A stretch of 64,000 nt of DNA from the NCBI RefSeq assembly GCF_058153355.1, contig NZ_CM177019.1. One strand, written 5' to 3'. Under the pieces are notes generated by a model. The model made no database searches. It saw only the letters and a list, made by a program, of their open reading frames with translations, and had not been told where the DNA came from. Position numbers and translations under genes: made by a program. Within the stretch, counting starts at the first letter, position 1; every line of letters starts with the position of its first letter. Positions 7,771-48,913 of the stretch are shown here, in pieces.

Positions 7771-9357
7771 TTAATGCTCGCGAGTCTGGTGGAACTGAAC
7801 GTCCGGATAACGTTCCTGCGCCAGGCGCAGGTTGACCATGCTGGTAGCGATGTAAGCGAGGTTATCGCCGCCATCAAGCGCCAGTTGGCTTTCGTTCTTA
7901 CGCTTGAACTCTTCGAATTTCTTCGCGTCCGCACATTCTACCCAGCGTGCAGTGGCAACGTTGACTGACTCATACACTGCTTCAACGTTGTATTCGCTCT
8001 TCAGGCGCGCTACCACCACATCAAACTGCAGCACACCAACCGCACCAACGATCAGGTCGTTGTTGGAGATCGGACGGAACACCTGCACCGCGCCCTCTTC
8101 GGAAAGCTGTACCAGCCCTTTGAGCAGCTGTTTTTGCTTCAGCGGATCTTTCAGGCGGATACGACGGAACAGTTCCGGCGCAAAGTTCGGAATACCGGTG
8201 AACTTCATCATCTCCCCCTGGGTAAAGGTGTCGCCGATCTGAATAGTGCCGTGGTTGTGCAGACCAAGGATGTCGCCCGGATACGCTTCCTCAACATGCG
8301 AACGGTCGCCCGCCATAAAGGTCAGCGCGTCGGAGATCACCACATCTTTCGCGGTGCGCACCTGGCGCAGCTTCATGCCTTTTTCATATTTACCGGATAC
8401 CACGCGCATAAACGCCACGCGGTCGCGGTGTTTCGGGTCCATGTTGGCCTGAATTTTAAATACGAAGCCGGTAAATTTATCTTCGCTCGCCTCTACGGTA
8501 CGGGTATCAGTCTGACGCGGCATCGGCGCAGGTGCCCACTCTACCAGGCCATCCAGCATATGATCGACGCCGAAGTTACCCAGCGCAGTACCAAAGAACA
8601 CTGGAGTAATTTCGCCCGCAAGGAACAATTCTTTGTCGAACTCGTTAGACGCGCCTTTCACCAGTTCCAGTTCGTCACGCAGCTGCTGTGCCAGATCTTC
8701 ACCAACCGCAGCATCGAGATCCGGGTTATTCAGCCCTTTAACAATACGGACTTCCTGAATGGTGTGACCTTTACCGCTCTGATAGAGATAGGTTTCGTCT
8801 TTATAAAGGTGGTAAACGCCTTTAAACAGCTTGCCGCAGCCAATCGGCCAGGTGATCGGCGCACAGCCGATTTTCAGCTCGTTCTCAACTTCATCGAGCA
8901 GCTCCATCGGGTCGCGGATATCACGGTCAAGTTTGTTCATAAAGGTGAGGATCGGCGTGTCGCGCAGACGGGTAACTTCCATCAGCTTGCGGGTACGATC
9001 TTCAACACCTTTTGCGGCGTCGATAACCATCAGGCAGCAGTCCACCGCCGTCAGAGTACGATAGGTATCTTCCGAGAAGTCTTCGTGCCCCGGGGTGTCG
9101 AGCAGGTTAACCAGGCAGTCGTGATACGGAAACTGCATCACAGACGTAGTAATGGAGATCCCACGCTGCTTTTCCATCTCCATCCAGTCCGACTTAGCGT
9201 GCTGGTTGGAACCACGGCCTTTTACTGTACCGGCAGTCTGAATGGCCTGTCCGAACAGCAGCACCTTCTCGGTGATGGTCGTTTTACCGGCGTCCGGGTG
9301 AGAAATAATTGCAAAGGTTCTTCTTTTCGCTACCTCTGCGGCCAAAAGGCTTGTCAT
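7771..9357 (-). CDS. prfC: peptide chain release factor 3 (hybrid: first ~16-21 codons supplied by the prophage)
   Basis: GTPase motifs [20 protein letters not shown] and NKLD; start ATG at 9355-9357 reads [15 protein letters not shown], whereas the displaced host version [16 protein letters not shown] is found at 48839..48913. Confidence 0.9.
9296..9309. repeat. prophage attL core (14-bp identity ATTATTTCTCACCC on the prfC coding strand)
   Basis: Identical 14-mer at 48848..48861; flanking prfC-homologous sequence diverges on one side and phage/host sequence on the other. Confidence 0.7.
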
Positions 9358-9374
9358 AATTGTTGTCTCTTTGA

Positions 9375-9395
9375 TTATGTACAATCATATGTACA
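9375..9395. repeat. integrase arm-type site cluster (TTATGTACAATCATATGTACA)
   Basis: 20/21 identical to 48664..48684; further (A/T)TGTACA copies nearby on both arms; both lie inside the prophage ends. Confidence 0.55.
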
Positions 9396-9517
9396 AAGAA
9401 AAATTCATGCCGCTGATTGTACATTTTGGAGGTATCAGAGCATAGCAGAACATGATCAGTAGGTGTATTTGTAGCCAAAGAACATTTGTATATGCAGCAA
9501 TCTTTGCTCTATTGACA

Positions 9518-9533
9518 CTGTTTATTCATACAG
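9518..9533. promoter_or_regulatory. LexA (SOS) box CTGT-N8-ACAG overlapping a TTGACA -35 element upstream of the dinI-like gene
   Basis: CTGTTTATTCATACAG immediately after TTGACA (9512..9517); a weaker second copy at 9546..9561. Confidence 0.55.
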
Positions 9534-9577
9534 TTAAAAATAATACTGTATAAAAACGCAGTAGAGAGGGGTTTTTT

Positions 9578-9826
9578 ATGCGTATTGAGATCTGCATAGC
9601 CAAAGAGAAAATGACTAAAATGCCAAACGGTGCTGTGGATGCGTTAAAGGAAGAATTAACTCGGCGCATCAGTAAGCGTTATGACGATGTAGAAGTGATC
9701 GTAAAAGCCACCAGCAATGATGGGCTTTCTGTTACACGCACCGCAGATAAGGATTCTGCAAAAACATTTGTTCAGGAGACTCTGAAAGATACCTGGGAGT
9801 CTGCTGACGAGTGGTTTGTTCACTAA
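9578..9826 (+). CDS. DinI-family damage-inducible protein (prophage-encoded)
   Basis: 82-aa [13 protein letters not shown]...[16 protein letters not shown] resembling DinI (conserved C-terminal TWESADxWFV); SD GAGAGGGG upstream. Confidence 0.8.
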
Positions 9827-9856
9827 TTAACACGTAAAATCTGTAACGGCTGGAAA

Positions 9857-10060
9857 TCATTCAATACTCGCACTATCGAAAGTTCGCCAGCCAACCGCAG
9901 CACGTTCTTGCATACGACGTGTCTGCGGTTTTATATAATCCCAGCCGGTCCAGTTTCCAGACAACCAGCGTGTCACCTGCCGATAATGTCCTGTCAACGC
10001 ATTACGTTGTAGATCGATTTTCTGGTCATTTGTTGATACGCAAACATAGCCAATAAGCAT
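9857..10060 (-). pseudogene. Gin/Pin/Hin-family serine DNA invertase, degraded remnant
   Basis: N-terminus MLIGYVCVSTNDQKIDLQRNAL matches the invertase catalytic N-terminus, then the frame breaks; a second frame encodes GDTLVVWKLDRLG (a Gin motif); only ~200 bp of a ~580 bp gene remains. Confidence 0.8.
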
Positions 10061-10126
10061 GGTAGCTCCCTCTGACAAAAGCAGGAATGATGCCATTTAC
10101 TCGTTATTTCTGCATTTTCATAAACA

Positions 10127-10148
10127 TTGGTTTACAGGAAGCGGTAAA
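10127..10148. repeat. gix-like recombination site (right), TTGGTTTACAGGAAGCGGTAAA
   Basis: Inverted repeat of 13182..13203 (21/22 bp); contains the GGTTTACAGGAA half-site characteristic of Gin/Cin/Pin crossover sites. Confidence 0.75.
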
Positions 10149-11085
10149 TCAGGCTTCTGGCGCATTACAGAAAAACCAGAACGGTGCAGATATTCCAGGA
10201 AAAGATACCTTCACCAAAAATATTGGTGCCTGTCGCGCATATAGCGCATGGGTGGATATTGGTGGCGATAGTCAGGTCTGGACAACTGCGCAATTTATTT
10301 CGTGGCTGGAGAGTCAGGGAGCATTTAACCATCCTTACTGGATGTGCAAAGGCTCATGGGCTTATGCAAATAATAAGGTCATTACAGATACAGGTTGCGG
10401 AAATATTTGTCTTGCAGGTGCTGTGGTGGAAGTTATTGGCACCCGCGGCGCAATGACCATACGCGTTACCACGCCGGGCACGTCCAGCGGCGGCGGAATC
10501 ACTAACGCTCAATTCACTTATATTAATCATGGTGATGCTTACGCTCCTGGCTGGCGACGAGACTACAACACGAAAAACCAGCAGCCTGCATTTGCTTTAG
10601 GGCAAACAGGAAATACCGTCGGAAACGACAAAGCCGTTGGCTGGAACTGGAATAGCGGGGTCTATAACGCAAATATTGGTGGCGCAACAACATTAATCCT
10701 CCACTTCAATATGAATACGGGGAGTTGCCCTGCCGTACAGTTCCGTGTGAATTACAGGAACGGCGGTATTTTTTATCGTTCAGCGCGTGATGGTTATGGA
10801 TTTGAGGCTGGCTGGTCAGAGTTTTACACCACAACACGCAAGCCATCAGCGAGAGATGTTGGCGCATATACGCAGGCAGAATGTAACTCAAGGTTTATTA
10901 CAGGTATTCGCCTTGGTGGTCTGTCATCTGTTCAGACATGGAATGGTCCCGGCTGGTCTGACAGGTCAGGTTATGTTGTTACCGGTTCCGTTAACTCAAA
11001 CAGAGATGAACTAATTGATACAACTCAGGCAAGGCCAGTTCAGTATTGCATTAATGGGACGTGGTATAACGCGGGGAGTATTTAA
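10149..11085 (+). CDS. alternative (currently silent) tail-fibre C-terminal cassette, no own start codon
   Basis: Begins at the gix site with GLQEAVNQ, homologous to GLQETVNR in the expressed fibre; ends ...RPVQYCINGTWYNAGSI like the expressed fibre C-terminus. Confidence 0.7.
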
Positions 11086-11087
11086 CG

Positions 11088-22884: not shown

Positions 22885-22892
22885 GAAGATTC

Positions 22893-32220: not shown

Positions 32221-32223
32221 AAA

Positions 32224-34180: not shown

Positions 34181-34223
34181 AAATCTTATCAACGGTAGAC
34201 ATACAAAGCCCATCGTTGGGACA

Positions 34224-34252
34224 ATCTTATCCATATTTTTTGAAAAATGCAA
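34224..34252 (-). promoter_or_regulatory. late promoter (PR'-like): -35 TTGCAT, 17-bp spacer, -10 TAAGAT
   Basis: Sigma70-like elements on the minus strand immediately downstream of the Q-like gene and ~45-60 nt upstream of the terminator. Confidence 0.5.
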
Positions 34253-34283
34253 GAATTATGTCGTCATCTTCGGCGAAAATCAT

Positions 34284-35036: not shown

Positions 35037-35049
35037 GCTCGTTCTCCAC

Positions 35050-36045: not shown

Positions 36046-36046
36046 C

Positions 36047-36874: not shown

Positions 36875-36959
36875 AAATTTTTATCCACGAGCGGGACTGC
36901 ACTCCCTTTTCGTTGATGCAGGATGCACTTACTGCGATTTTTAATAGTTATCAAGGGCA

Positions 36960-36979
36960 TACTGTTCATAAATACAGTA
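36960..36979. promoter_or_regulatory. LexA (SOS) box TACTGTTCATAAATACAGTA
   Basis: 20-bp palindrome matching TACTGT-N8-ACAGTA at both ends; ~85 bp upstream of the KilA-N gene start, in the RusA/KilA-N intergenic region. Confidence 0.6.
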
Positions 36980-37024
36980 TCTTTAACGAGGTAATACCCA
37001 AATTTAGGGTGTTGCTCAATTCCG

Positions 37025-37420
37025 TTACCGAGTTGCTAATTTGCAACTCGCTTTTTCGTACTTACTGATAGTGATCTCGACCTTCCCTTCCGGGATAACC
37101 GGTCCCCACTCCACCAGCATTCTTTTCACCTGACTGTCGTCTTCCCACACACCCGCGTGGGTCAGAGCGTCAAACAGCGCCTTGTTATAGTTGTCCAGAT
37201 CGCGGATCCGGTTATCCGGAGGAAACAACACGATCTCCACTGAAGCAGGTGCCGACGTTGGTTTCGGCAGACGACGTAACTGCTCAACTATTGCTGCGCA
37301 CGCCGCGCTCTGGAATTTGCGCCCCGCCGCGCTTATCAGGCTTTTACCAGCAAACGCCCCTTTGTTAGGGTGTCGCCAGTACGTATTCACGCTGGGCGGG
37401 AAAGGCAGGATCAGTTTCAT
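37025..37420 (-). CDS. Holliday junction resolvase RusA-like
   Basis: 131 aa; conserved RusA pattern (PPSVNTYWRH..., DLDNYNKALFDALTHAGVWEDDSQV). Confidence 0.8.
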   Translation of the reverse strand: MKLILPFPPSVNTYWRHPNKGAFAGKSLISAAGRKFQSAACAAIVEQLRRLPKPTSAPASVEIVLFPPDNRIRDLDNYNKALFDALTHAGVWEDDSQVKRMLVEWGPVIPEGKVEITISKYEKASCKLATR

Positions 37421-37743
37421 ACTTTCAGGCCTCTCTCATGTAACCAGTGGGTTGCACGCAGCCTTGCGTTTTCCTCACCGGCAAGCAGTGAGCGGATAAT
37501 CCCGACAGCCTCGCTGTCGTCGTCCTTCACCGCGGTATGAAGCGTTATCCCCCGGGCCACGCCACGCTTTATCGTGATGACGCCTTTTTTCTCCAGTGCG
37601 CGAAGATGCTCCACCGCTGCATTCACTGAACGGTATCCCAGCATGGTTGCCACCTCCTGATTGGTTGGCGGGAAGCCACGTTCTTTCTGGTAAGAAATCA
37701 GCATATCCAGCACCTGCTGCTGGCATTGAGTTAATGTCGTCAT
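37417..37743 (-). CDS. LexA N-terminal DNA-binding-domain homologue (no peptidase domain)
   Basis: 108 aa; LTQCQQQVLDMLISYQKERGFPPTNQEVATMLGYRSVNAAVEHLRALEKKGVITIKRGVARGITL aligns with the E. coli LexA N-domain at roughly half identity; there is no S24 peptidase region. Confidence 0.7.
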   Translation of the reverse strand: MTTLTQCQQQVLDMLISYQKERGFPPTNQEVATMLGYRSVNAAVEHLRALEKKGVITIKRGVARGITLHTAVKDDDSEAVGIIRSLLAGEENARLRATHWLHERGLKV

Positions 37744-38393
37744 GCCGCCATCTCCCTGACCAGTTTTTCCGCCTGCTGGCGAACCTGCGCCAGAAAGGCC
37801 TCACCACATGCCTCAAGTTCATCGCGCCCGATGTAGCTGATTGCCGGTCCCTTCCAGGTCTTGTCGAAAACAACAATAGCACCAGCGAAGAAAGCGCCTG
37901 TCGGCACCTGCTTCTCGTCCTTCGGTATAAACCAGGCAGGCAGTTCAAAACCAATACGCCCGCGAATAAAAGCAATATGATCTGCATCTTCCGGCCACCA
38001 CACTTCGCTGGTGGCAGCTTTGATCAGGAAAACATAGCGCCCGCCTTTATCACGCATGGCACTGGCATGTTTCATGATGTAACGCATGCCGGTGATGTAT
38101 TGCCCCTCATGCTGACTGGCGCGGCTGTATGGGGGATTACCAAAGGCAGCACCTTTAAGCTCCGCAAGACGTTCTGACCAGTCATGCGCCAGCGCGTTGT
38201 CTTCCGCCGTGTAATACGCGGCACATTTGGCGTTATCACCGTCAGTGAACAGATCCAGAACAAACGGACCAAACAAGGTGTTAATTCCCCAGAAAATGTT
38301 GTCCGGCGTGCGCCACTGATCGCCCACTTCCTTCAGTTCATGGGCTGGTTTGTTCCGCAGTTCTACCAGCGCCTGGCAATATTTATTACTCAT
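37740..38393 (-). CDS. phage N6-adenine DNA methyltransferase (Dam-like)
   Basis: 217 aa with FGNPPYS catalytic motif; typical lambdoid nin-region methylase. Confidence 0.8.
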   Translation of the reverse strand: MSNKYCQALVELRNKPAHELKEVGDQWRTPDNIFWGINTLFGPFVLDLFTDGDNAKCAAYYTAEDNALAHDWSERLAELKGAAFGNPPYSRASQHEGQYITGMRYIMKHASAMRDKGGRYVFLIKAATSEVWWPEDADHIAFIRGRIGFELPAWFIPKDEKQVPTGAFFAGAIVVFDKTWKGPAISYIGRDELEACGEAFLAQVRQQAEKLVREMAA

Positions 38394-38487
38394 TAAGCCC
38401 CCACGTAAAAAGCATCCGCAATGTCTCCGGAAGTACAGCCCGGATGGGCTTCAATGAATTTCTGAACGTCATTTAACAGACTCATGA

Positions 38488-39480
38488 TCACCCCCTGAAT
38501 CCTGCCGGGATCTGGCTGTAGTCCACGTTGTCGTAACTGGCTTTGAAGTACGGGTCTTCACGTTTTTCTGTGTGCGTGCTGACGGACGGCGATAAGCGCA
38601 GGGAAAGCTCATCCCATTTTTCCCGCAACTTCGACGGGCTGAGCACGTTACGGCACCAGAACGGATCGCGGCTGACGCGGCTGTACATCTCGCAGATTTG
38701 TTTGTGAGTACGACCATCCTGCACACACATCAGGCGAATTTCGTTTGCCCATGCTGTCCAGTTCGGTTCTTTGGGACGAACCACCTCGCCGTCACATTCG
38801 GCGGCCTGCTCGTACAGGGCGATGATTTTTTTCCAGAGCCACTGTGCGCAGGTCAAATCATCCTGCGTTCCCCACTGGCGCTTTTTAGGGCTGAATACAA
38901 CCGCATCAGGATGGCGAGTTAAAAACTCCTGTTCAGCCGTTTGCGTGTCCGGTTGCGAAGCGTCCGGACGAGAAGAGGTTTTATTCTCTGTAGTAATCTC
39001 TGTTGTATTCTCTGTAAGATCATTGGGCCATTTTGACCCGATGACAGCGTGTCGTTTTGAACCAATGGATCGTGTCATTTTGCGCCCATCCATCAGGTCA
39101 CTTTGACCCGATGGAGAAGTGCATTTTGACCTGATGGATTCGTTCACTTTGACCTCTTCTAAAAGCTCACTTTCATAGTTGATCGTGTAGAAGTTGGTCA
39201 TGTCACGCTTCGATTTATTGAGTTGCTCGCGACGCAAAACCCCAAGTGATTTCAAGCTTGCAAATGTGCGTTTCAGAGTGGACTCTGACCAGAACGGAAA
39301 CTGCTCCAGCCACTGTTCTGTCGTGTTATAAACCCAGCGAATTCCGCCATGCTCTGTGCCTGAATTCGTTTCATTCAGCCAGTAATGAAGCTGCTGCAAC
39401 ACAATTGCCTCATTCAGACCAATACGGCATGCAAGATCACGATTTATCACAATGGGCTGGGATGTCATTAACAGGCTCAT
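38488..39480 (-). CDS. replication initiator/replisome organiser with DnaT-like C-terminus; origin iterons embedded
   Basis: 330 aa; internal iterons; C-terminus ...NVDYSQIPAGFRG mirrors the host DnaT C-terminus ...[10 protein letters not shown] present in this window. Confidence 0.7.
   Translation of the reverse strand: MSLLMTSQPIVINRDLACRIGLNEAIVLQQLHYWLNETNSGTEHGGIRWVYNTTEQWLEQFPFWSESTLKRTFASLKSLGVLRREQLNKSKRDMTNFYTINYESELLEEVKVNESIRSKCTSPSGQSDLMDGRKMTRSIGSKRHAVIGSKWPNDLTENTTEITTENKTSSRPDASQPDTQTAEQEFLTRHPDAVVFSPKKRQWGTQDDLTCAQWLWKKIIALYEQAAECDGEVVRPKEPNWTAWANEIRLMCVQDGRTHKQICEMYSRVSRDPFWCRNVLSPSKLREKWDELSLRLSPSVSTHTEKREDPYFKASYDNVDYSQIPAGFRG
39028..39157. repeat. phage replication origin iterons: six direct repeats, core TTTGACC(C/T)GATGG, ~23.5 bp period
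   Basis: Repeat cores start near 39031, 39055, 39078, 39101, 39125 and 39148; located inside the initiator gene as lambda ori is inside O. Confidence 0.7.
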
Positions 39481-39489
39481 GACCGACCT

Positions 39490-39828
39490 CTATTTCCCTG
39501 AATTTACGACGAAACTGTTCGAGCGGACTGAAGCATTCATGTTCATAGCCTTCACGGAGGTAGATAACCCGTTGTGTTTCCGGCTCCCAACGAATGACTC
39601 TGACGGGCACTCCGTAGTGATCTTTGAACCAGCGGTTAACTTGTCGCAAAGGACTGTCTCCTTCTGCCGGTTGAAATCACCCACAGCCCACTCTGCAAAG
39701 CTGTGGGTTACAATTTCCCTGTCACCTGGTACATTCACTGCATAGCAATACTCCACCTTCGCTTTTCCACCCGGTACAGGAAGCGCAATCAGTTGCGAGC
39801 GACGGTAGTGTGTTGTTAAACTGTTCAT
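39490..39828 (-). CDS. hypothetical early protein
   Basis: 112 aa; ATG overlaps the stop of the upstream gene (ATGA coupling) and the stop lies 9 bp before the initiator start. Confidence 0.5.
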
Positions 39829-40409
39829 GCGTTAGTTTCTCCACAGACACAAAACGCCACGACGCCCGGAGCTGCACACTCGCGGGCGTCACTCTTTTCT
39901 GGAGCGCAAAAGATTTTGTAGACCAGTGCTGCATGCTCCTGGAGCTTCGAAATTGACAGATACAACTCATCATTAATTACTGTCTGCTCGTGTGGCTCCA
40001 CTACCCCATCTTCGATTGCCGAACGAATCTGCTTTGAGTAACTCCCGATCTGTTCGATGACTTCCAGCAGACGCTGGTTTATATCGGCGTTCTCTACTTC
40101 CTCAATTTCAGGAAGCGATACAAACACCCCACCAGCAGACTGTGCGACAGCATCCGCAATGTAGTGAGTGCCAGCCGCGCGCTGTAAAATCATTGCCCAT
40201 CCCAGCGGGAAAATCTGATCGCCATCTGCACGAAGGCGGTTGAATAAAGCGTTCTCTGTTACATCCAGCCACTCAGCAGCTTCAGCGTAACCTCCCGGCA
40301 ACGCCGCGATAGTTTTTCTGACAGCTTTCACGTACCACTCAGGCTGTTTTTCTACTTTCCAGTGATGCTTACCCACGGCTATCTCCTTAAAACTGTGGTT
40401 ACTTTCCAT
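39825..40409 (-). CDS. early regulatory protein (YdaT/CII-like position)
   Basis: 194 aa directly downstream of the Cro-like gene; resembles Rac-type YdaT as far as memory allows. Confidence 0.5.
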
Positions 40410-40647
40410 CAGATAAGTCTTTAATCTTTTGAAAAATATCTGGACGTAATTTTTCTTTTGATACGCCAGTGGTCATTTCAATGAATATCGAGAGCTTTGC
40501 AGGGGGACGCTTTTCTCTGTTCAACCAGTTCCAGACATGTTGTTGCTTTACTAAACGACCACTGCTGGCTGTGAGCTTCCGAGCCAATTCTGATTGACCA
40601 CCAGCCAGAGCGATTGCCTCTGATAAGGCTAATTGCTCAGGTGTCAT
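40399..40647 (-). CDS. Cro-like HTH regulator (YdaS-like)
   Basis: 82 aa, divergent from the CI-like repressor across an operator region. Confidence 0.7.
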   Translation of the reverse strand: MTPEQLALSEAIALAGGQSELARKLTASSGRLVKQQHVWNWLNREKRPPAKLSIFIEMTTGVSKEKLRPDIFQKIKDLSDGK

Positions 40648-40650
40648 AGC

Positions 40651-40784
40651 TTTCTCCTATCTGTAAGTAGTAAAGTTGTTGATAACTTCGATTATACAAC
40701 TACAACAACTTTTATTACAACTTTTAGATGTTGGAAAGCTAAAACATAAAGTTGTAACCTCAATAAAAACGAGGGGGATATGTT
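40651..40784. promoter_or_regulatory. OR-like operator/promoter region with repeated AAGTTGT / ACAACTT half-sites
   Basis: Divergent intergenic region between cro-like and cI-like genes with at least four copies of the heptamer in both orientations; the same motif recurs at 41650..41700. Confidence 0.55.
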
Positions 40785-41471
40785 GTGAAAACATTGGCAG
40801 AAAGACTAAAAAGCGAAAGAGAAAAAGCAGGAATGAGTCAGGCGCAACTAGCTGAAAAAATTGGACTTTCACAACAATCCGTAGCGAAAATCGAGAATGG
40901 AGAAACTCAACAGCCTCGGAAAATTAAAGAGATTGCTAAAGTGTTAGGGGTTTCTCAAAAGTGGTTGCAATTGGGCATTGAGGATAACGCGTCTTTCCCA
41001 AACCTTGTTGTAAAGGAGGCTGAAAGTACAACATTAGATCCTGACATTTTTGCAAACATTCCTGTCCTAGATGTCGAATTATCAGCGGGTAATGGATGTT
41101 TGGCTGAAATAGTTGAATCAACTGTAGACTGGTTCCCGCTAAGAAGGATTGATTTAAGGAAAGCTGGTGTATGTGTCTCCAATGCAAAGATCGTAAAAAT
41201 TTGGGGTAATAGTTTACTACCTGTACTTAACAATGGAGATTTTGTTGCTGTTGATGTTTCCCAAACAGTTCCTATTCGTGATGGGGATCTTTATGCTATA
41301 CGTGATGGCGTATTACTTAGAGTTAAAATATTGATCAATTTACCTGACGGTGGTCTGATTCTAAGAAGTTTCAATAAAGATGAGTATCCAGATGAAATAC
41401 TCACCTTCGAAGATAGGCGTTCCAGAATTCACGTTATAGGTAGAGTATTCTGGTCATCGCGCACTTGGTAA
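40785..41471 (+). CDS. CI-like repressor (HTH_XRE N-domain + S24 LexA-type peptidase C-domain)
   Basis: 228 aa; GMSQAQLAEKIGLSQQSVAKIENG HTH; C-terminal domain with Ser (GNSLLP) and Lys (RVKIL) typical of autocleaving repressors; GTG start with SD GAGGGGG. Confidence 0.85.
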   Translation: MKTLAERLKSEREKAGMSQAQLAEKIGLSQQSVAKIENGETQQPRKIKEIAKVLGVSQKWLQLGIEDNASFPNLVVKEAESTTLDPDIFANIPVLDVELSAGNGCLAEIVESTVDWFPLRRIDLRKAGVCVSNAKIVKIWGNSLLPVLNNGDFVAVDVSQTVPIRDGDLYAIRDGVLLRVKILINLPDGGLILRSFNKDEYPDEILTFEDRRSRIHVIGRVFWSSRTW

Positions 41472-41649
41472 TGCATCAAAAACATTCCTTCAGAAATTTA
41501 GTTACCATTATTACCCGCCTTTTCAATCTTCCTCCCGTGATTTGAGAGTTTCCAATCACGGAAGGAAAGTGTCCATTGTGTAATTAAAAGCGCATCGTCC
41601 ATACAACCTCCTTTTTTGATAACCCTAGCCCCCATTTAACATCCGTCAA

Positions 41650-41700
41650 AACCACATAAAGTTGTTGACAACAACCAAAACAACAACTAGATTACAACTT
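41650..41700. promoter_or_regulatory. OL-like operator region (AAGTTGTTGACAACAACC palindrome and further ACAACTT copies)
   Basis: Same heptamer family as the OR region, located downstream of cI and upstream of the plus-strand early-left genes. Confidence 0.5.
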
Positions 41701-41803
41701 AAAGATGTTGCAGTAACGAACAGGCAGGACGCCCACGAAGTAGCCGCCGGTGGCGTATGAATGACCGGATGATTCGTTAAATACTATGTGTAAGAGAGCG
41801 CAA

Positions 41804-42006
41804 ATGAACCGTTATTTCACATGCTCGTTTTGTGGCGCAAACGAGCTGCAGGCAAAAAAATCATCGCCAAAGGCGGAAAAGATGAAGTTGCTATCTGCTC
41901 TGAGTGCGTAGTCTTGTGTGTTGGGGCATTAATCAATATCAGCACAACTATTCAGTTCACACCAAATGAGAATGCGCCTTTAGATGCGCGGAAATCTGGA
42001 GGTTAA
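41804..42006 (+). pseudogene. ClpX-N-type C4 zinc-ribbon protein, reading frame split at an A7 tract (41854..41860)
   Basis: Frame A: MNRYFTCSFCGANELQAKK...; frame B continues ...IIAKGGKDEVAICSECVVLCVGALI. The joined sequence has CxxC-N18-CxxC; a -1 shift at A_AAA_AAA connects the frames. Confidence 0.5.
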
Positions 42007-42098
42007 AGAACAAAATGAAAGTCCAGATTTTAAACAATAACTGTGAAGTCGTTTGGGCGTAAAACATGACCGCGCGTAGACCAAGGGAGGAAAAAGTG

Positions 42099-42272
42099 GG
42101 AATAGTTAGAAATCAAGCAGATATATTGAAAATCAGCTCTGAATTGCTTGGAGTTTTGAAAAGTGAGCTCACCGCACATGGCATCGAGCCCACTGACGAA
42201 AATTTAAGTTGGGTTTTGTCGATTATTCAACAATCACTCAAGCCCAGCCTCAGCAAACTTTTTATCGAGTAG
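42099..42272 (+). CDS. small hypothetical early protein
   Basis: GTG start with strong SD AAGGGAGG; 57 aa; 3' end overlaps a convergent minus-strand ORF. Confidence 0.4.
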   Translation, partial: GIVRNQADILKISSELLGVLKSELTAHGIEPTDENLSWVLSIIQQSLKPSLSKLFIE

Positions 42273-42425
42273 TGCTTCGAACTTATCGTAAAGCTTGCTT
42301 ATGTCGTCTATCGGGTTTTCTGACGTACTGTAATTTTTATCTGATGTCATGGCAGCAGTCTGATATGCAGTGTGAGTCTTAACCGATAGTTGGAATAAAT
42401 AAAGAATTTTTTCTTCTTTGGTCAT
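42234..42425 (-). CDS. small hypothetical acidic protein, convergent and 3'-overlapping
   Basis: 63 aa (MTKEEKILYLFQLSVKTHTAYQ...), SD AAGGAA, low GC. Confidence 0.45.
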   Translation of the reverse strand: MTKEEKILYLFQLSVKTHTAYQTAAMTSDKNYSTSENPIDDISKLYDKFEALLDKKFAEAGLE

Positions 42426-42863
42426 AACTATTTCCTTCTTGGCTATATGAAAACACCAAGATACCACCGAGCCTGAAGTGGTGAAAAGACAGGCACATAA
42501 CAGCTAAGTATTTTCAACCAGAGAGAATCCTTAGCGTTGTGGTGAATGCGGCTCAGCGCACGCGGGTTAAGGTTGAGGTTGACAGTCGACCTTCTGTGGA
42601 TACCCACCCGCCTGGTGTGCAACCTTCGCCAGGCACCGGGAGGCACCCGGCACCACAACTTTATGCTGTGTGTAGTCCTCGCGGTACCAGTTTGTACACT
42701 TGCTTCCGGCTGGTACCGCTCTTTTTACAAAACAGAGAAGGGCATCACCGGACGACGGGCTCATAACCCAATCCATCCGGGCGGCTGCCACCGCAGGTGT
42801 TCTTCTCTGTTTTGTGGAGAAACCAACCGACCTTGCAGGGTCGATATGATGAGGAGCAGCAAA

Positions 42864-43226
42864 ATGGCTAGCGAACGCAGTACTGATGTGCAGGCATTTA
42901 TCGGGGAGCTGGACGGCGGCGTATTTGAAACCAAAATCGGCGCAGTTCTCAGTGAAGTCGCTTCCGGTGTGATGAACACGAAAACCAAAGGTAAGGTCTC
43001 GCTCAACCTGGAAATCGAACCATTTGATGAGAACCGTGTGAAAATCAAACACAAACTCTCATATGTTCGCCCGACTAACCGCGGGAAAATTTCCGAAGAA
43101 GACACCACCGAAACACCGATGTATGTCAATCGCGGTGGTCGCCTGACTATTCTGCAGGAAGACCAGGGACAATTACTGACTCTTGCCGGTGAACCTGACG
43201 GAAAACTACGCGCAGCAGGTCATTAA
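42864..43226 (+). CDS. hypothetical early protein (YfdP-like size and position)
   Basis: ATG at 42864 with SD GAGGAG; 120 aa MASERSTDVQAFIGELDGG...; the upstream part of the track ORF is judged non-coding. Confidence 0.6.
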   Translation: MASERSTDVQAFIGELDGGVFETKIGAVLSEVASGVMNTKTKGKVSLNLEIEPFDENRVKIKHKLSYVRPTNRGKISEEDTTETPMYVNRGGRLTILQEDQGQLLTLAGEPDGKLRAAGH

Positions 43227-43291
43227 TATCGTTCTTAATTAACTGATTATTTATCTCATCACTGAATATCTTTATATAGTGAGGACTTATT

Positions 43292-44116
43292 ATGTCTCAG
43301 AACTTAGACGCAACCGCAATTAATCAAATCCATGCCCTTATTTCTGCTCAGGGTGTTAATGAAATTATTAGTAAGATTGGTGCCGATGCTGTGGCATTGC
43401 CTGAGAATTTCCGCATTCATGATCTGGAAAAATTTAATTTAAATCGCTTCCGTTTCCGTGGTGCGCTTTCCACTGCCAGCATCGATGACTTTACCCGTTA
43501 TTCTAAAGATCTTGCAGATGAAGGCACCCGCTGCTTTATCGATGCCGATAATATGCGTGCCGTCAGTGTGCTTAACCTGGGTACTATTGATGAACCAGGT
43601 CACGCAGATAACACCGCCACTCTCAAACTGAAAAAGACAGCACCGTTCTCTGCTCTGTTGTCTGTTAATGGCGAGCGTAACTCCCAAAAGTCACTGGCAG
43701 AATGGATTGAAGACTGGGCCGACTACCTTGTGGGCTTTGATGCTAATGGTGACGCCATTCAGGCAACCAAAGCGGCTGCGGCGATCCGTAAAATCACAAT
43801 TGAAGCGAACCAGACCGCTGATTTTGAAGACAATGACTTCAGCGGCAAACGCTCCCTGATGGAGTCTGTCGAAGCGAAGACCAAAGACATTATGCCAGTG
43901 GCATTTGAATTTAAATGCGTTCCGTTTGAAGGCCTGAAAGAACGTCCGTTTAAATTACGCCTCAGCATTATCACTGGCGATCGTCCTGTACTGGTTCTGC
44001 GCATTATTCAGCTGGAAGCGGTGCAGGAAGAAATGGCTAACGAATTTCGTGATCTGCTTGTTGAGAAATTTAAAGACAGCAAAGTAGAAACCTTTATTGG
44101 TACTTTCACCGCCTGA
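43292..44116 (+). CDS. YfdQ-family protein (DUF2303-like)
   Basis: 274 aa, the same length as CPS-53 YfdQ; part of a YfdP/Q/R/S-like gene set. Confidence 0.6.
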
Positions 44117-44243
44117 TTTCATTACTGCAAATGCCCCTGCGGGGGCATTTATGGAAACATAATTTACTCAATAATCGCCGGATGGTGAGGGCTTCCTTTT
44201 ACCAGAATTCAGCGCGGTGCAGCGCATATACGTGGAGAACAAA

Positions 44244-44780
44244 ATGTCATTTATTAAAACTTTTTCCGGGAAGCATTTTTATTATGACAAGATAAATAAA
44301 GACGACATCGTTATTAACGATATCGCGGTTTCCCTTTCAAATATCTGTCGCTTTGCAGGGCATCTTTCACACTTCTACAGCGTCGCCCAACATGCGGTGC
44401 TTTGCAGCCAGCTGGTACCGCAGGAATTTGCTTTTGAAGCGTTAATGCATGATGCAACAGAAGCATATTGCCAGGACATCCCCGCACCACTGAAACGACT
44501 TCTTCCTGACTATAAACGGATGGAAGAAAAAATAGACGCCGCAATCCGTGAGAAATACGGGTTACCCCCAGTTGTGAGTACGCCCGTGAAATATGCCGAT
44601 CTCATCATGCTGGCAACCGAACGCCGCGATCTCGGGCTTGATGATGGCTCTTTCTGGCCTGTACTGGAAGGCATCCCGGCAACAGAGATGTTCAACGTGA
44701 TTCCACTGGCACCGGGTCATGCCTACGGGATGTTTATGGAACGTTTTAACGATTTATCGGAGTTACGCAAATGCGCATGA
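44244..44780 (+). CDS. HD-domain 5'-deoxynucleotidase (YfdR-like)
   Basis: ORF 44217..44780; start MSFIKTFSGKHFYYD gives 178 aa; HD-like residues (HAVLCSQ...MHDATEAYCQD). Confidence 0.7.
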   Translation: MSFIKTFSGKHFYYDKINKDDIVINDIAVSLSNICRFAGHLSHFYSVAQHAVLCSQLVPQEFAFEALMHDATEAYCQDIPAPLKRLLPDYKRMEEKIDAAIREKYGLPPVVSTPVKYADLIMLATERRDLGLDDGSFWPVLEGIPATEMFNVIPLAPGHAYGMFMERFNDLSELRKCA

Positions 44781-45133
44781 ATGTTTTCGAAATGGAAGGG
44801 TTTCTTCGCGGGAAATGTGTACCGCGAGATCTGAAAGTGAACGAAACAAATGCTGAGTACCTGGTACGTAAATTCGACGCGCTTGAAGCTAAATGTGCGG
44901 CACTGGAAAACAAAATAATACCAGTGTCAGCTGAACTGCCACCAGCAAATGAAAGTGTTCTGTTATTTGATGCTAATGGAGAAGGCTGGCTGATTGGCTG
45001 GCGTTCTCTCTGGTACACCTGGGGACAAAAAGAAACCGGAGAATGGCAGTGGACATTTCAGGTCGGGGACCTTGAAAACGTCAATATCACTCACTGGGCA
45101 GTAATGCCAAAAGCACCGGAGGCTGGAGCATAA
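44771..45133 (+). CDS. hypothetical protein (YfdS-like)
   Basis: 120 aa; overlaps the upstream stop. Confidence 0.5.
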   Translation: MRMNVFEMEGFLRGKCVPRDLKVNETNAEYLVRKFDALEAKCAALENKIIPVSAELPPANESVLLFDANGEGWLIGWRSLWYTWGQKETGEWQWTFQVGDLENVNITHWAVMPKAPEAGA

Positions 45134-45912
45134 TGACCACATTTACCAATAAAGAACTGATTAAAGAAATCAAAGAACGAATCAGCAGCCTAGAGGTTCG
45201 AGACGATATTGAGCGCCGTGCTTATGAAATTGCTCTGGCATCGCTAGAAGAGGAGCCGGTGGCATGGCTGCATTCAGAAAATGGCTTAGGTATTCCGGCA
45301 ATAACGAGGTGTAAAAACATTGCTGACAGTTGGTTATCAAAGGGCTGGTATGTTCAGCCGCTATATATAGCCAAGCCAGTGCCGGTAGTGCCAGATGCTC
45401 GTCCGTCTTTAAATAATGGCATAGTCGGTTTTGATGAAGGCTGGAACGCCTGCCGCGCCGCCATGCTTCATGGTGCCGAACCTGTAAACCAAACTTACAA
45501 GTCACCACACACGCAGTTTGAACAAGTTGCTGACCTCTACGAAATGCAATTTGATGACGGTCGCACTTGTGCCTTTCACACTGATGCGCAAAAGGCTGCG
45601 CAATGGCTTCAGGTGTGCGACGGAAACAGGGTTCAGGAATACGTTAAGCTGGAACGGCTGCAGAACGCGCTGTCTGGCAACTCTCCGGTAAGTCCGGGTG
45701 GTTGGATAAGCTGTAGTGAGCGAATGCCGAATGATAAACAGTATGTTTGGTGTTGGGGGAAGTCTTACGGCTGGACTGAGTGCGATACCTTCGAAGGGTA
45801 TTATGATTGGTCGAGAAACAAATGGTGGGCAGTTACTGACAATGAGGAAGAACAGGCATCGAAAGTAACCCACTGGATGCCACTACCGGAGCCGCCGCAG
45901 GAGGTGAAGTAA
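45133..45912 (+). CDS. hypothetical protein with Trp-rich C-terminal domain (DUF551-like)
   Basis: 259 aa; C-terminus WISCSERMPNDKQYVWCWGKSYGWTECDTFEGYYDWSRNKWWAVTD. Confidence 0.5.
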   Translation: MTTFTNKELIKEIKERISSLEVRDDIERRAYEIALASLEEEPVAWLHSENGLGIPAITRCKNIADSWLSKGWYVQPLYIAKPVPVVPDARPSLNNGIVGFDEGWNACRAAMLHGAEPVNQTYKSPHTQFEQVADLYEMQFDDGRTCAFHTDAQKAAQWLQVCDGNRVQEYVKLERLQNALSGNSPVSPGGWISCSERMPNDKQYVWCWGKSYGWTECDTFEGYYDWSRNKWWAVTDNEEEQASKVTHWMPLPEPPQEVK

Positions 45913-46106
45913 TGAACAACTTAATGACAACTAAACAAGTCGCCGATTTCTGTGGTGTTTCAGTATCGACAGTTCTTCGCTGGAACAGCGTAAACAGGAG
46001 AACTGGTCAGAAATATAGGCCTGACTTTCCAGATCCTGATATTAAATCCTGCCCAAATAAATGGGCATCACACAAGATTTACAGATTTGCGGGAGTGATT
46101 GAGTAA
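45912..46106 (+). CDS. excisionase/AlpA-like HTH protein
   Basis: 64 aa; TTKQVADFCGVSVSTVLRW helix-turn-helix; located near the integrase. Confidence 0.6.
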   Translation: MNNLMTTKQVADFCGVSVSTVLRWNSVNRRTGQKYRPDFPDPDIKSCPNKWASHKIYRFAGVIE

Positions 46107-46388
46107 TATGTATTAGCTTAGATGTGAGCTGACACATCTATGCTTAGATGCCAAACCTAATCTGAGCGTCCACTCTTTACCAAGAGCGGACGTTACCAAT
46201 GACCATATGACATGAATCGATAAGATCAAAACATTATCACCAAGAAATGTCATACCATTGATACAAATAAAATTGATTACCCCCTTACTCTTGTTGAAAA
46301 GTTAGTCGTAGAGTACCTATCGCAATGTAATCAGCTTTAATCATCTTAAAATTACTCCTTAAAAATTAGCTTTTATATACTGAACAAA

Positions 46389-47108
46389 TTAAATCTCTGT
46401 TTCTTTTCCTGCTCGGCTCAACCAATACTCCATTGTTTGAGTATGAATCTTTTCAGCGTATATTTTATCAATTAATTTATCTTGTTTTTCTTTAATGACT
46501 TCACGCAGTGAATCATATAACATAAAAAAACGTTCATCATCTTCCTCATTATTACCGTAATTTATTTGATTGAGCTCTGAAAAAATATGATAGTACCTTT
46601 TCTTCTTGGTCCCCGGCAATATTAAAACCAAGCCACATTGATCATATTCGAATTCACCTTTATGGGCAGCAAAGTTATGTCTAACATTCATAATAGAATC
46701 ATGTAAATCTCTGTATTTTTCTGGCACATGCTTTCTCTGCAATGTGAATCGACGCCCTTTCGCCTCTGTAAAACACTTACCGTAAGTAACAACTTTTGAT
46801 ATAAATAAAGACTTTAATATTAGATTCTTTTCTAAATCCGGATAAATAAAGTGTTGTTCTTTATTAATGTTATTACAAATGTTTTTTATTATATTCTCCC
46901 AACCAATAACATTCCGAAGATCTTTATCAAGCAACTGTAAGGCCACATATTGTTCTACAAAGCGGCCTTTTAAAGGTATTCGTGGTAATATTACACCTTT
47001 CTGCTTATAAATTCTTTCTATCGTATTATCTGGATATTGGATCTTCCTTATTTCTATTCCGTCTTCTTCTGATACCCTTACTAATGGTTCATTTTTTAAC
47101 TTTGACAT
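46389..47108 (-). CDS. hypothetical protein, AT-rich cargo gene between xis and int
   Basis: 239 aa; markedly AT-rich relative to flanks; own intergenic regions on both sides; no family recognised. Confidence 0.6.
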   Translation of the reverse strand: MSKLKNEPLVRVSEEDGIEIRKIQYPDNTIERIYKQKGVILPRIPLKGRFVEQYVALQLLDKDLRNVIGWENIIKNICNNINKEQHFIYPDLEKNLILKSLFISKVVTYGKCFTEAKGRRFTLQRKHVPEKYRDLHDSIMNVRHNFAAHKGEFEYDQCGLVLILPGTKKKRYYHIFSELNQINYGNNEEDDERFFMLYDSLREVIKEKQDKLIDKIYAEKIHTQTMEYWLSRAGKETEI

Positions 47109-47394
47109 GTTAACCCTCTTAAATAAAAAACTAACTTTATCCAGATAGTGTCCGTTAAGAAGTTTTCGTTACAACTAAGTTTCTAGGTAAATCATGAATC
47201 GACCTATAGTATCAAAAACATTTGGTGGTAAACATCTGCATTTATCAAATGGCAGGAGCGATTTAGGGGCATAGGGATAGTGATGATATCGATACTCGCC
47301 CCCCTCTTATGTCAACACAATGGCGTAAACTTAACGCTCACATCTCGCTCAAAGTGTGCTAGGAGATTTGGTTATGTTCAGGTGATACAAACCG

Positions 47395-48618
47395 TCAGTT
47401 TGAATCAGAGATAGTACAATTAACAATCGATTCAACCCTCTTCCACCATGCCAGGTAAGCTTTACGCTGTTCTTCTAGATAATCGCTCTTATCATAAACT
47501 TGCCATACCCCTGGCAGCTTATGACCAAGCATAATTTCTGCGATATGAGGCGCAGTAAGATCAGAAAAATTTGTTCGAGCTGTACGTCTCAAGTCATGAA
47601 GAGACCAATGAGGGAATTGATATCCTAAACACCGCCATGCGTACTGCATTAAATTGTAAGGCAGCGACTGCAATGATGTCCGACCAACGGGTTCCCTGCT
47701 TCCTTCCTTAGTAAAAAGCATATCGGAACCATTGTTCATAGAGATAGCGTACTTTATAAGCTCTTCAACCGGTTCAATAATGGGCCGCTTTAGCGGTTCG
47801 CCTGTTATCTCCCCTGTCTTATGTCGTTCTGGTGGTACAGTCCATACTTTATTAATGAAATCAAAATCGTCCACCCGGGCGGTAATTAGCTCTGAACTAC
47901 GGCAACCAAAATGCAGCAATAGTTTAATGAAGGCCCGGTATTTAGGAACCATTCGAGAACCATCGATCGCAGCATAAAGGATTTTAATTTCATCATGTGT
48001 CAGAAACCGTTTCTTCTGACCTTTACGGATATCCATATCTTTACCCGTGATATCCGACAGCGGGCGAGTTTCAATGAGCTTTCTCTTATACGCCCAGACA
48101 TGGGCCTGCTTTGCGTTAATTAGCAATCGGTCTGCTATTGCTGGAGTCTTAGTGCTAAGAGGCTCCAGGACTTCTAACCAATCATGCAATGTAGCTGCAT
48201 CGTGAGGGATATTCCCGATTTTAGAGAACAGGTGCAGCTCAAACGAGCGAAGTATCTGTTCAGAACCTTTTTTATTTTTTACACAATATGCTTCATACCA
48301 AGCACGGATCACAGACTCTACCGTCATGGCTTCAGTAGCTTTTCGTTTTTCAGCCTGCTTGACCAATCGTGGATTACGGTTTGACTCGAGTTCACCACGA
48401 AGACGGATAACTTCTTCTCTGGCCTCTTTTAATCCAGTTGCCGGGTAAGTTCCGATATCAAGACGCTCACCTTTCCCTGCCCATTGATAACGATATTGGA
48501 ACACTACGCGACCTTTCGGTGATACTCTGACAGACAGACCATCACGATCGGATTTAACCAAAACCTTATCACGTTCCTTTCCAACGACTGAACGCAACCA
48601 CGCATCAGACAGCGCCAT
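47395..48618 (-). CDS. tyrosine integrase (P4-type)
   Basis: 407 aa; C-terminal catalytic region with HDLRRTARTNF and a downstream Tyr; adjacent to attR and the arm-type sites. Confidence 0.9.
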   Translation of the reverse strand: MALSDAWLRSVVGKERDKVLVKSDRDGLSVRVSPKGRVVFQYRYQWAGKGERLDIGTYPATGLKEAREEVIRLRGELESNRNPRLVKQAEKRKATEAMTVESVIRAWYEAYCVKNKKGSEQILRSFELHLFSKIGNIPHDAATLHDWLEVLEPLSTKTPAIADRLLINAKQAHVWAYKRKLIETRPLSDITGKDMDIRKGQKKRFLTHDEIKILYAAIDGSRMVPKYRAFIKLLLHFGCRSSELITARVDDFDFINKVWTVPPERHKTGEITGEPLKRPIIEPVEELIKYAISMNNGSDMLFTKEGSREPVGRTSLQSLPYNLMQYAWRCLGYQFPHWSLHDLRRTARTNFSDLTAPHIAEIMLGHKLPGVWQVYDKSDYLEEQRKAYLAWWKRVESIVNCTISDSN

Positions 48619-48663
48619 TACTCACCTTGTACAAATCGCAAAACACCTCTGCTGTTTTGTACA

Positions 48664-48684
48664 TTATGTACAAGCATATGTACA
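48664..48684. repeat. integrase arm-type site cluster (TTATGTACAAGCATATGTACA)
   Basis: Pairs with 9375..9395; additional TTGTACA copies at ~48626 and ~48655. Confidence 0.55.
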
Positions 48685-48838
48685 GATTTTTGATGAAAGC
48701 AAGCTGATCGATTTAAAGTTACATGAAAGAGTTTTCAATTAAAGAAGCTACATAAGCAAATGTATTTAAATGAGTTATATAGCTCAACTTCAATTAACTG
48801 AAAGGATTTTGAAAGAGTAAAAGAGCTTTAATTTGGAC

Positions 48839-48913
48839 TTAATTATTGGGGTGAGAAATAATGGCAAAAGTGCGGCGCTTCGCCACCTCTTGCAAATAAG
48901 GAGACAACGTCAT
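48839..48913 (-). pseudogene. prfC: orphaned original 5' end of prfC (24 codons) displaced by prophage integration
   Basis: Minus strand reads ATG ACG TTG TCT CCT TAT TTG CAA GAG GTG GCG AAG CGC CGC ACT TTT GCC ATT ATT TCT CAC CCC AAT AAT TAA = [24 protein letters not shown]. Confidence 0.85.
48848..48861. repeat. prophage attR core (ATTATTTCTCACCC)
   Basis: Identical to 9296..9309. Confidence 0.7.

Follow-up and report, generated by a model that had tools for sequence, protein, structure and literature searches.

Gene organization of the locus

The window, by which we mean the whole 64-kb stretch of DNA analysed here, carries an SfV-like myovirus prophage of 39,553 bp (~39.6 kb, 9310..48862) that lies within the 5′ coding region of prfC, the gene for release factor 3 (RF3). 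To its left lies a hybrid prfC of 528 aa on the minus strand (7771..9357), and divergent from it a dinI-like gene on the plus strand (9578..9826; DinI, NF007893 and phrog_189), with a LexA-box-like TACTGTATAAAAACGCAGTA (9543-9562, plus strand) recognised by the known CTG-N10-CAG consensus and a promoter-like site, TTGACA-18-AAAAAT, which a promoter scan placed on the same strand from 9512. Next comes the remnant of a DNA invertase gene (9857..10096, minus strand), of which only some 25 residues at the N-terminus can be recognised (the hits to phrog_8275 and phrog_125 cover residues 11-38 and no more), and a full-length recombinase occupies this position in O145:H28 RM12761. A tail-fibre and tail-fibre-assembly cassette with alternative inverted copies (10087..13492, inverted repeats 11032-11444 / 11821-12232) is followed by a minus-strand late module (13496..32559), in which PHROGs, as in the cassette, identify the baseplate, tape measure (18566..20473), sheath (21255..22730), major head (24755..25984), large terminase (27964..29697) and endolysin (31744..32220). 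The early and regulatory module (32637..45912, PHROGs) includes methyltransferases, a Q-like antiterminator (34284..35036), an O-like replication protein (38488..39480), a CII-like gene (39825..40409) and a plus-strand CI-like repressor (40785..41471).

Beyond it lie a plus-strand excisionase (recombination directionality factor) candidate of 64 aa (45912..46106; phrog_1553, E = 4e-36), a minus-strand gene of unknown function (46389..47108, 239 aa; phrog_8440, no NCBIfam or PADLOC match) and the gene of a tyrosine integrase of 407 aa (47395..48618), read on the minus strand in the same direction as prfC. A PADLOC defence scan of the genes between int and the early region returned nothing meaningful. 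The element can be described as a complete-looking temperate phage, in which SfV-like structural and early genes are combined with the int/att cassette of cdtI, 2H10 and the prfC-type Stx phages, although its full competence is not certain, since one distal arm site is mutated (TGTATA) and the invertase gene is truncated.

Integration site and attachment core

The prophage is flanked by two copies of GGGTGAGAAATAAT on the plus strand, one at 9296..9309 (attL core) and an exact copy at 48849..48862 (attR core), which read ATTATTTCTCACCC in the prfC sense. Taken by itself, a 14-nt exact repeat has no significance in a 64-kb window, where 28 pairs of exact direct repeats of at least 14 nt were counted; roughly 20 of these pairs are unrelated, and a uniform model predicts ~7.6. 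This pair gains its significance from where it stands: both copies lie in frame in prfC starts, one on either side of a prophage with an integrase gene, and they also match the empty site and the attP of free phages. In a five-way alignment of attB, attP, attL and attR sequences, the attB of K-12 MG1655, which is the empty site with its host halves directly joined, is made up of the left half of attR and the right half of attL. The attP of cdtI and Ayreon combines the left half of attL with the right half of attR, and the switch between host and phage falls exactly at the 14-mer. The attP reconstructed from the window (604 nt) is matched over 100% of its length by 2H10 and cdtI (95-96.5% identity) and over 88% by Ayreon, and in all three free phages the predicted attP is present as one contiguous stretch. 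Furthermore, in GenBank entries for Stx2c phages located at prfC, a 14-nt ‘duplication due to insertion’ is marked where the core aligns (92%-identical alignment).

The original prediction had placed a prophage inside the prfC 5′ coding region with the N-terminus rebuilt, and its coordinates, its reading frames and the 14-mer that it took for the crossover core all hold up, the last because K-12 attB and free-phage attP switch there. The presence of the prophage within the 5′ coding region, where it provides a substitute gene start, is confirmed. There is virtually no chance that the orientation is reversed, with the 9357 side belonging to the host and the 48913 side to the phage, or that the 14-mer is a chance repeat and the prophage ends elsewhere. 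Such a reading could draw on the insignificance of a lone 14-nt repeat, but the version contiguous with prfC in K-12 and in most of 5,424 matching E. coli genomes is the 48913-side one, that contiguous with int in free phages is the 9357-side one, and the comparison that the original prediction had named as decisive, the N-terminus encoded at an empty site, came out on the 48913 side: RF3 of K-12 MG1655 begins MTLSPYLQ. The start on the 9357 side is therefore phage DNA, and the K-12 locus, the five-way alignment and the K-12 RF3 N-terminus together already refute a reversed orientation or a chance repeat. A tyrosine recombinase placed the phage by site-specific recombination in prfC codons 18-22 (I-I-S-H-P, just before the GTPase P-loop), and strand exchange took place within the 14-bp identity ATTATTTCTCACCC.

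The hybrid prfC and the orphaned host 5′ end

The hybrid gene starts at an ATG at 9357, and its codons 1-16 (9310..9357, minus strand) are phage-derived, contiguous with the int-side arm in cdtI, 2H10 and Ayreon, with host sequence following from the core onward. Its product begins MTSLLAAE and differs from K-12 RF3 only in the first 7 vs 8 residues, since residues 8-528 are identical to K-12 residues 9-529 at 521/521 positions; RefSeq annotates the same hybrid as an intact prfC (WP_000202563.1). On the other side, 221 nt beyond the int start, a minus-strand mini-ORF (48839..48913) of 24 codons encodes 22 residues identical to the K-12 RF3 N-terminus, followed by N N and a stop. Two further proposals are thereby borne out, namely that the phage carries its own prfC 5′ segment, which is contiguous in free phages and absent from the K-12 start, and that the remnant at 48913 is the original host 5′ end. 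Immediately before the core, attP has its own ribosome-binding region, an ATG and 16 codons resembling those of prfC, so that integration rebuilds a full-length RF3 changed only in its first 7-8 residues and leaves the host promoter, ribosome-binding site and first 22 codons as a 24-codon stub before int. In sequence prfC is repaired, and its function would presumably be preserved with it.

The 27 nt that encode EVAKRRTFA differ between the phage and host copies at 8 positions, all of them synonymous, and different elements carry different replacement prfC starts, at least four unrelated N-termini, always in frame. We count both the all-synonymous differences (8/27) and the independent in-frame starts as support for selection on the replacement start, which they suggest, although the divergence could also go back to a prfC acquired from a different host, with no selection in the phage behind it. 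The phage-derived junction is found in 699/5426 complete E. coli genomes (~13%, about one in eight), at ≥99% identity in 687 of those 699, and among 12 sampled records 11 are close matches on a gene annotated prfC, the other being an 89% match without an annotated feature.

Integrase and putative TGTACA arm sites

The integrase matches phrog_1 and possesses the domains PF13356 (Arm-DNA-bind_3), PF22022 and PF00589 according to the precomputed annotation of close relatives, being 99.0% identical to the Int of 2H10 and 97.3% to that of the Stx1a/Stx2c prfC phages; the int region of cdtI has 95% DNA identity. Two 21-nt repeats, TTATGTACAATCATATGTACA (9375..9395) and TTATGTACAAGCATATGTACA (48664..48684), are identical at 20/21 positions and contain TGTACA. 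This hexamer occurs 14 times in the window vs 12 expected, and 7/14 occurrences lie in the reconstructed attP, inside about 105 nt of its sequence, a clustering far beyond chance. The P′ arm has three TATGTACAA-type sites (9376-9384, 9388-9396 and, inverted, 9416-9424), 19-67 nt upstream of the replacement prfC ATG, and a degenerate fourth site (9486..9494) that reads TGTATA here (9488-9493) and TGTACA in cdtI, Ayreon and the elements L096 and L098. Equivalent sites precede the replacement prfC start in the unrelated elements L097, L100, L101 and L102. Four TGTACA sites make up the P arm (48626..48685), at -15, -45, -54 and -66 relative to the int ATG; relatives in Salmonella, Xenorhabdus, Pseudomonas and Acinetobacter have them at the same positions, and conservation before int reaches integrase relatives of only ~45% identity.

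The catalytic and arm-binding domains, the arm-type repeats on both sides and an excisionase candidate are the features of a lambda-type (heterobivalent) system, and the TGTACA repeats on either side of the core would be arm-type sites to which Int binds through its N-terminal arm-binding domain. Comparison with relatives and the Arm-DNA-bind_3 domain fit this assignment, and the conserved positions likewise favour the earlier proposal that the 21-bp repeats are arm-type sites, probably not the core. That the repeats instead bind another factor (the excisionase, a phage repressor or a host protein) as operators of int and prfC is quite unlikely: their location, -15 to -66 relative to int and -21 to -66 relative to the replacement start of prfC, is where operators would be, but the motif accompanies Int in phages and islands whose other genes are unrelated, in hosts ranging from Escherichia to Acinetobacter and Moraxella, it stands on both arms where excisionase sites are normally confined to one, it changes on both arms at once in Gifsy-1, and Int has a dedicated arm-binding domain. 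The two roles are not exclusive, as Int bound at -15 could autoregulate int.

Transcription of prfC and int

A promoter-like TTGCCT-16-TAAAAT in the yjjG-prfC intergenic region (48976..49003, minus strand), found by a consensus scan only, is the candidate native prfC promoter. It now faces the remnant ORF and int, and a terminator scan between it, with the prfC remnant, and int found none, an arrangement that permits read-through into int and does not prove it. Since the native promoter is now 39.6 kb away and faces int, prfC must be transcribed from inside the prophage, and in the lysogen its promoter would be located at the phage left end, with 9358..9577 as the most likely interval. Before integration, in the circular phage, this transcription unit would be expected to read through the prfC-like leader into int. 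We infer this phage-borne promoter from necessity, with no convincing sigma-70 match: a strict sigma-70 scan of 9200..9700 returned no promoter on the prfC strand, a relaxed weight-matrix scan of 9358-9700 on that strand gave weak candidates only (TTTTCT-17-CATAAT and TACACC-17-TATGCT), and the relaxed scan found no promoter position common to the window, L097, L100, L101, L102 and Gifsy-1. A shared TAGAATC(C/A)C(C)GCC upstream of the arm sites in L097, L100 and L102 is absent from the window.

Such results might be taken to mean that the replacement 5′ end is a promoterless relic and prfC is effectively inactivated, with lysogens lacking RF3 and tolerating the loss because it is dispensable. 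Between the new ATG and the divergent dinI-like gene, 220 nt in all, there is indeed no convincing prfC-strand promoter, RF3 is non-essential and its expression not guaranteed, prfC has been listed among genes ‘disrupted’ by prophages (Bobay et al., 2013; PMC3603311), and Ogura et al. (2007) leave prfC expression open and note that prfC is not listed as essential. We nevertheless regard inactivation as very unlikely, for the replacement start reads in frame, with its ATG retained and a Shine-Dalgarno-like stretch rich in purines, only synonymous differences separate its conserved codons from those of the host, other elements have at least four unrelated replacement N-termini, every one of them in frame, the cassette is conserved at ≥99% in 687 genomes, and SXT/R391 elements at the same site restore function (PMC12210918). 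The explanation that we favour with high confidence is site-specific integration at prfC with 5′-end repair, TGTACA arm sites and phage-borne transcription.

Integrase relatives and the lepA parallel

Diverged relatives of the integrase were gathered by protein search, contig look-ups and a DNA pattern scan, and those of 84%, 65%, 52% and 33% identity are found at prfC with the same layout; an integrase search in viral contigs gave only relatives of 97-100% identity, ending at int. A Pantoea agglomerans Int (56% identical) has one TGTACA site only and no adjoining prfC remnant, so that not every member of the clade targets prfC.

As a separate observation, the related integrase of Gifsy-1 is directed at the equivalent codons of lepA, a paralogous GTPase gene. 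In this Salmonella phage Int is 47% identical to the one described here, and attP has the identical arrangement (arm repeats, then MKNIRNFSIIAHID as the replacement gene start, then core, arm repeats and int), with a target at the equivalent position of a paralogous translational GTPase gene; it differs in that the target is lepA, not prfC, and the motif on both arms is TGTCCA, not TGTACA. The parallel suggests a general strategy of the clade, in which translational GTPase genes are entered at their conserved start and the element brings a spare one along. One may tentatively go further and picture a reciprocal promoter exchange, in which an outward-facing phage promoter serves int, through the prfC-like leader, in the circle and RF3 in the lysogen and the host promoter then serves int through the putative Int sites at -15 to -66, combined with a clade that moves between prfC and lepA along conserved pre-P-loop codons, the arm motif changing alongside; this combined scenario is speculative and, in our judgement, rather doubtful. 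Neither the exchange nor the movement is stated in the literature searched.

Comparison with known elements

The observation and its interpretation are correct and were already known, both from the SXT/R391 precedent and from a prfC Stx1 phage, for which a changed RF3 N-terminus and loss of the native promoter and ribosome-binding site have been described (Ogura et al., 2007; PMC2323221). With prfC a published attachment site of prophages and integrative conjugative elements (ICEs), the case matters little as a discovery; its value is for annotation, as large-scale surveys count prfC as ‘disrupted’ by prophages though the gene is rebuilt, and the question of RF3 expression concerns lysogens that include many Shiga-toxin-producing strains.

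The closest relatives are the prfC phages cdtI (AB285204), 2H10, Ayreon, the O103 Stx1 phage (Ogura et al., 2007) and the CC119 Stx1a/Stx2c phages (LC7278xx), whose Int is 97-99% identical and which share the attP, the 14-bp core, the replacement prfC 5′ segment and the TGTACA arms. The body of the present prophage is that of an SfV-like contractile-tail phage without cdt or stx, whereas the CC119 prfC Stx phages are long-tailed; differing bodies around a common int/att cassette are ordinary mosaicism. In the structural genes SfV matches 66% of the query 9310..31000 at 97% (97.3%) nucleotide identity, and in the early region SfV and the prfC Stx2c phages match 58% of the query 31000..48848 at ~95%, the SfV match ending at position 14237 of the 17849 in that query, short of the int-att end. 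Phages of the SfV group, to which SfI, SfII and SfIV are also related, integrate at a tRNA gene; the present prophage has the SfV-like structural gene set but sits at prfC, without the SfV-type integrase and tRNA site.

Phage 21 and e14, which integrate at icd, and tRNA-integrating phages also carry a copy of the displaced part of their target gene, so that the gene stays intact. They replace a 3′ end and leave the host promoter and start untouched, whereas here the 5′ end, ribosome-binding site and promoter are replaced. SXT, in work by Hochhut and Waldor from 1999, reportedly provides a new promoter and N-terminus. The SXT/R391 ICEs use the same prfC site and rebuild the gene as seen here, and their integration ‘restores a functional prfC’ (PMC12210918). 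Their defining feature is an integrase nearly identical to IntSXT (PMC2791158), and int expression is controlled by SetCD (PMC4344509); the cdtI Int clusters with IntSXT, not as a ~99% orthologue (PMC8138268). An ICE identity was considered and rejected for the present element, as the SXT/R391 conjugative backbone (tra, setCD/setR) is absent: SXT/R391 are conjugative elements, whereas the genes of the element at this locus are those of a phage (head, tail, terminase, lysis), together with one for a CI-like repressor.

Integration within the prfC coding region

The original prediction described a prophage inside the 5′ coding region of prfC, the gene of release factor 3 (RF3), with its N-terminus rebuilt from phage DNA, and this reading is confirmed, since the attB, attP and RF3 identity comparisons all agree with it. 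The hybrid prfC (7771..9357, minus strand) starts at 9357, and a second prfC-like start lies on the same strand at 48913, opening a mini-ORF that ends in N, N and a stop; 39,556 nt separate it from the first, and it lies 221 nt past the start codon of int (47395..48618, minus strand, 407 aa). Both carry ATTATTTCTCACCC in the prfC sense, at 9296..9309 and 48849..48862, so that the two starts and their common 14-mer were found where they had been predicted. With 28 pairs of this kind in the window, of which about 20 are unrelated, an exact 14-nt repeat alone is without significance, and it is the context that gives it meaning. The longest direct repeats of the window come from three tandem tRNA-Leu(CAG) genes (54318..54639), an ordinary host feature.

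The prfC locus of K-12 MG1655 (holD-rimI-yjjG-prfC) is without insertion, and a five-way alignment has shown that its attB is identical to the 48913 side as far as the 14-mer and to the 9296 side after it, the free phages cdtI and Ayreon having the complementary arrangement. The RF3 N-terminus of this uninterrupted locus is the 48913-side version, the outcome on which the prediction had been staked in advance. The attP rebuilt from the window (604 nt) matches 2H10 and cdtI over its full length at 95-96.5% identity and Ayreon over 88% of its length, and by alignment the core position is annotated as a 14-nt insertion duplication in the GenBank records of the CC119 Stx1a/Stx2c phages. Of the 528 aa of the hybrid RF3, residues 8-528 are the same as residues 9-529 of K-12, the sole change being MTLSPYLQ to MTSLLAA at the N-terminus. 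Past the core, a weaker similarity continues for about 50 nt on the phage-borne side (48870..48895 at attR, 9317..9342 at attL), since what the phage carries is a diverged copy of the 5′ end of prfC. Attachment-site cores are usually given as the exact duplication only, and owing to this diverged similarity repeat-finding tools could misplace the prophage boundary.

Insertion into prfC with a replaced start is already known and very common. A prfC Stx1 phage was reported to change the RF3 N-terminus with loss of the native ribosome-binding site and promoter (Ogura et al., 2007, PMC2323221), reviews name prfC as an Stx phage site (PMC8065619), the CC119 Stx1a/Stx2c phages use it (PMC10132054), SXT/R391 integrative conjugative elements insert there and restore a functional prfC (PMC12210918), and the cdtI phage integrase and IntSXT fall into one prfC-targeting cluster (Smyshlyaev et al., 2021, PMC8138268). 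Elsewhere prfC was counted as “disrupted” (Bobay et al., 2013, PMC3603311), a label that is over-simplified with respect to this cassette.

Over the nine codons before the core (EVAKRRTFA), 8 of 27 nucleotides are not the same in phage and host, every change being synonymous; these changes could go back to a prfC that was acquired from a different host. When viral contigs were scanned by pattern, more junctions came up whose replacement starts are unrelated; all are in frame, with TGTACA repeats ahead. Moreover, the phage-derived 160 nt adjoining the core is present in 699 of the 5426 complete genomes of E. coli, with an identity of at least 99% in 687, and genomes with this junction include O145:H28, O121 and O111:H8 strains; among 12 sampled records, the 11 close matches lay on a gene annotated as prfC and an 89% match had no annotated feature. 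Together, the synonymous-only differences, the in-frame replacement starts and the occurrence in many genomes argue for selection on the translated product of the rebuilt prfC.

Gene content of the prophage

The prophage spans 9310..48862, or 39,553 bp with one core copy counted. Its late genes, among them those of terminase, head, sheath, tape measure and tail fibres, are 97% identical to those of Shigella phage SfV. A large part of the early region shares about 95% identity with SfV and with prfC-type Stx2c phages, and the int/att end is the cassette of cdtI, 2H10, Ayreon and the CC119 Stx1a/Stx2c phages. It encodes a CI-like repressor, a CII-like protein, an O-like replication protein, a Q-like antiterminator, an endolysin, the integrase and an excisionase (45912..46106), and stx and cdt genes are absent from it. 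Between excisionase and integrase lies a 239-aa gene (46389..47108, minus strand; phrog_8440, function unknown) without NCBIfam or PADLOC match, which may be a cargo gene. An invertible tail-fibre cassette (10087..12232) carries alternative fibre C-termini and assembly genes in inverted orientation. Only the first 25 or so codons of a DNA invertase remain (9857..10096, minus strand), at a position where a related prophage of O145:H28 RM12761 has a full-length recombinase, and the switching cassette is therefore probably locked.

Predicted arm-type sites of the integrase

TGTACA occurs 14 times in the window, close to the 12 expected by chance, but one attP arm has three of these sites (9378-9423) and the other has four (48628-48684); the site consensus is TATGTACAA, and paired copies lie 12 nt apart. 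The two 21-nt repeats containing it (9375..9395 and 48664..48684) are located as predicted and agree at 20 of 21 positions. Upstream of the int ATG the motif stands at -66, -54, -45 and -15 in the window, at -65, -53, -44 and -15 in a Salmonella element (Int 84% identical), at -81, -67, -55 and -15 in Xenorhabdus (65%), at -70, -57 and -21 in Pseudomonas (52%), and at -67, -55, -45 and -16 in Acinetobacter phage ABMM1 (45%), the surrounding sequence being otherwise diverged; the Salmonella, Xenorhabdus and Pseudomonas elements each lie directly after a host prfC stub and core. Because these positions are kept among relatives, TGTCCA is found on both arms of Gifsy-1, and Int has an Arm-DNA-bind_3 domain, the assignment of the repeats as predicted arm-type Int sites, also part of the original prediction, is well supported by comparison. 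A predicted fourth, distal P′ arm site lies at 9488..9493, some 133 nt ahead of the replacement ATG of prfC, reading TGTATA in the window versus TGTACA in cdtI, Ayreon and two viral contigs. The -15 site abuts the ribosome-binding region of int, which suggests possible autoregulation of int.

Promoters of prfC and int

After integration, the native promoter-like site (TTGCCT-16-TAAAAT, 49003..48976) points toward the stub and int, and a dinI-like gene in divergent orientation adjoins the new prfC start upstream; transcription of prfC in the lysogen must then, we infer, start in about 220 nt of phage DNA, in which no convincing sigma-70 site was found. Within 9512..9562, the promoter-like site of the dinI-like gene is overlapped by the LexA-box-like TACTGTATAAAAACGCAGTA; a prfC promoter located in the same region could make RF3 expression responsive to DNA damage. 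In three viral contigs with otherwise dissimilar prfC junctions (L097, L100 and L102), TAGAATC(C/A)C(C)GCC is found 60-90 nt upstream of the replacement start codons, just upstream of the TGTACA repeats, and is a candidate -10 element with GC-rich discriminator of an outward promoter; the window cassette has no equivalent.

As read from the sequence, prfC and int run in the same direction, and the order in the circular phage is arm sites, replacement prfC start, core, about 230 nt with arm sites, and int. In the lysogen, the host prfC promoter and stub come to lie before int, with no terminator-like site found between these and int, and integration may thus exchange promoters between int and prfC.

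Relatives of the integrase and GTPase gene starts

The target is not shared by every member of the Int clade: on a Pantoea agglomerans contig (L088, upstream of int at 2501), an int whose product is 56% identical to the window Int has one TGTACA site and lies beside bhsA-like and fimbrial genes with no adjoining prfC remnant. In Moraxella phage Mcat9 (KR093633; L094, 1-38), whose integrase is 41% identical, TGTGTACATAATTGTGTACATA directly before the integrase is annotated as “attL”, and it looks less like a crossover core than like a pair of arm-type repeats of this clade.

The attP of Gifsy-1 (NC_010392, 46500-48491 and 1-1500; Int 47% identical) has the layout of the window, but for lepA instead of prfC and with TGTCCA on both arms instead of TGTACA. 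GTCCA repeats are followed by the lepA start, ATG AAG AAC ATA AGA AAT TTT TCG ATC ATT GCT CAC ATC GAT, which reads MKNIRNFSIIAHID, then by about 200 nt with four GTCCA/TGGAC sites (GTCCA at -73, -61, -46 and -22 before the int ATG), and by int. Neither this parallel nor a clade-wide strategy was found stated in the literature searched. The Gifsy-1 core occupies codons that are paralogous to those of the prfC core, immediately ahead of the P-loop of the GTPase, and the same architecture at equivalent lepA codons points to a clade-wide strategy in which the starts of GTPase genes would serve as targets.
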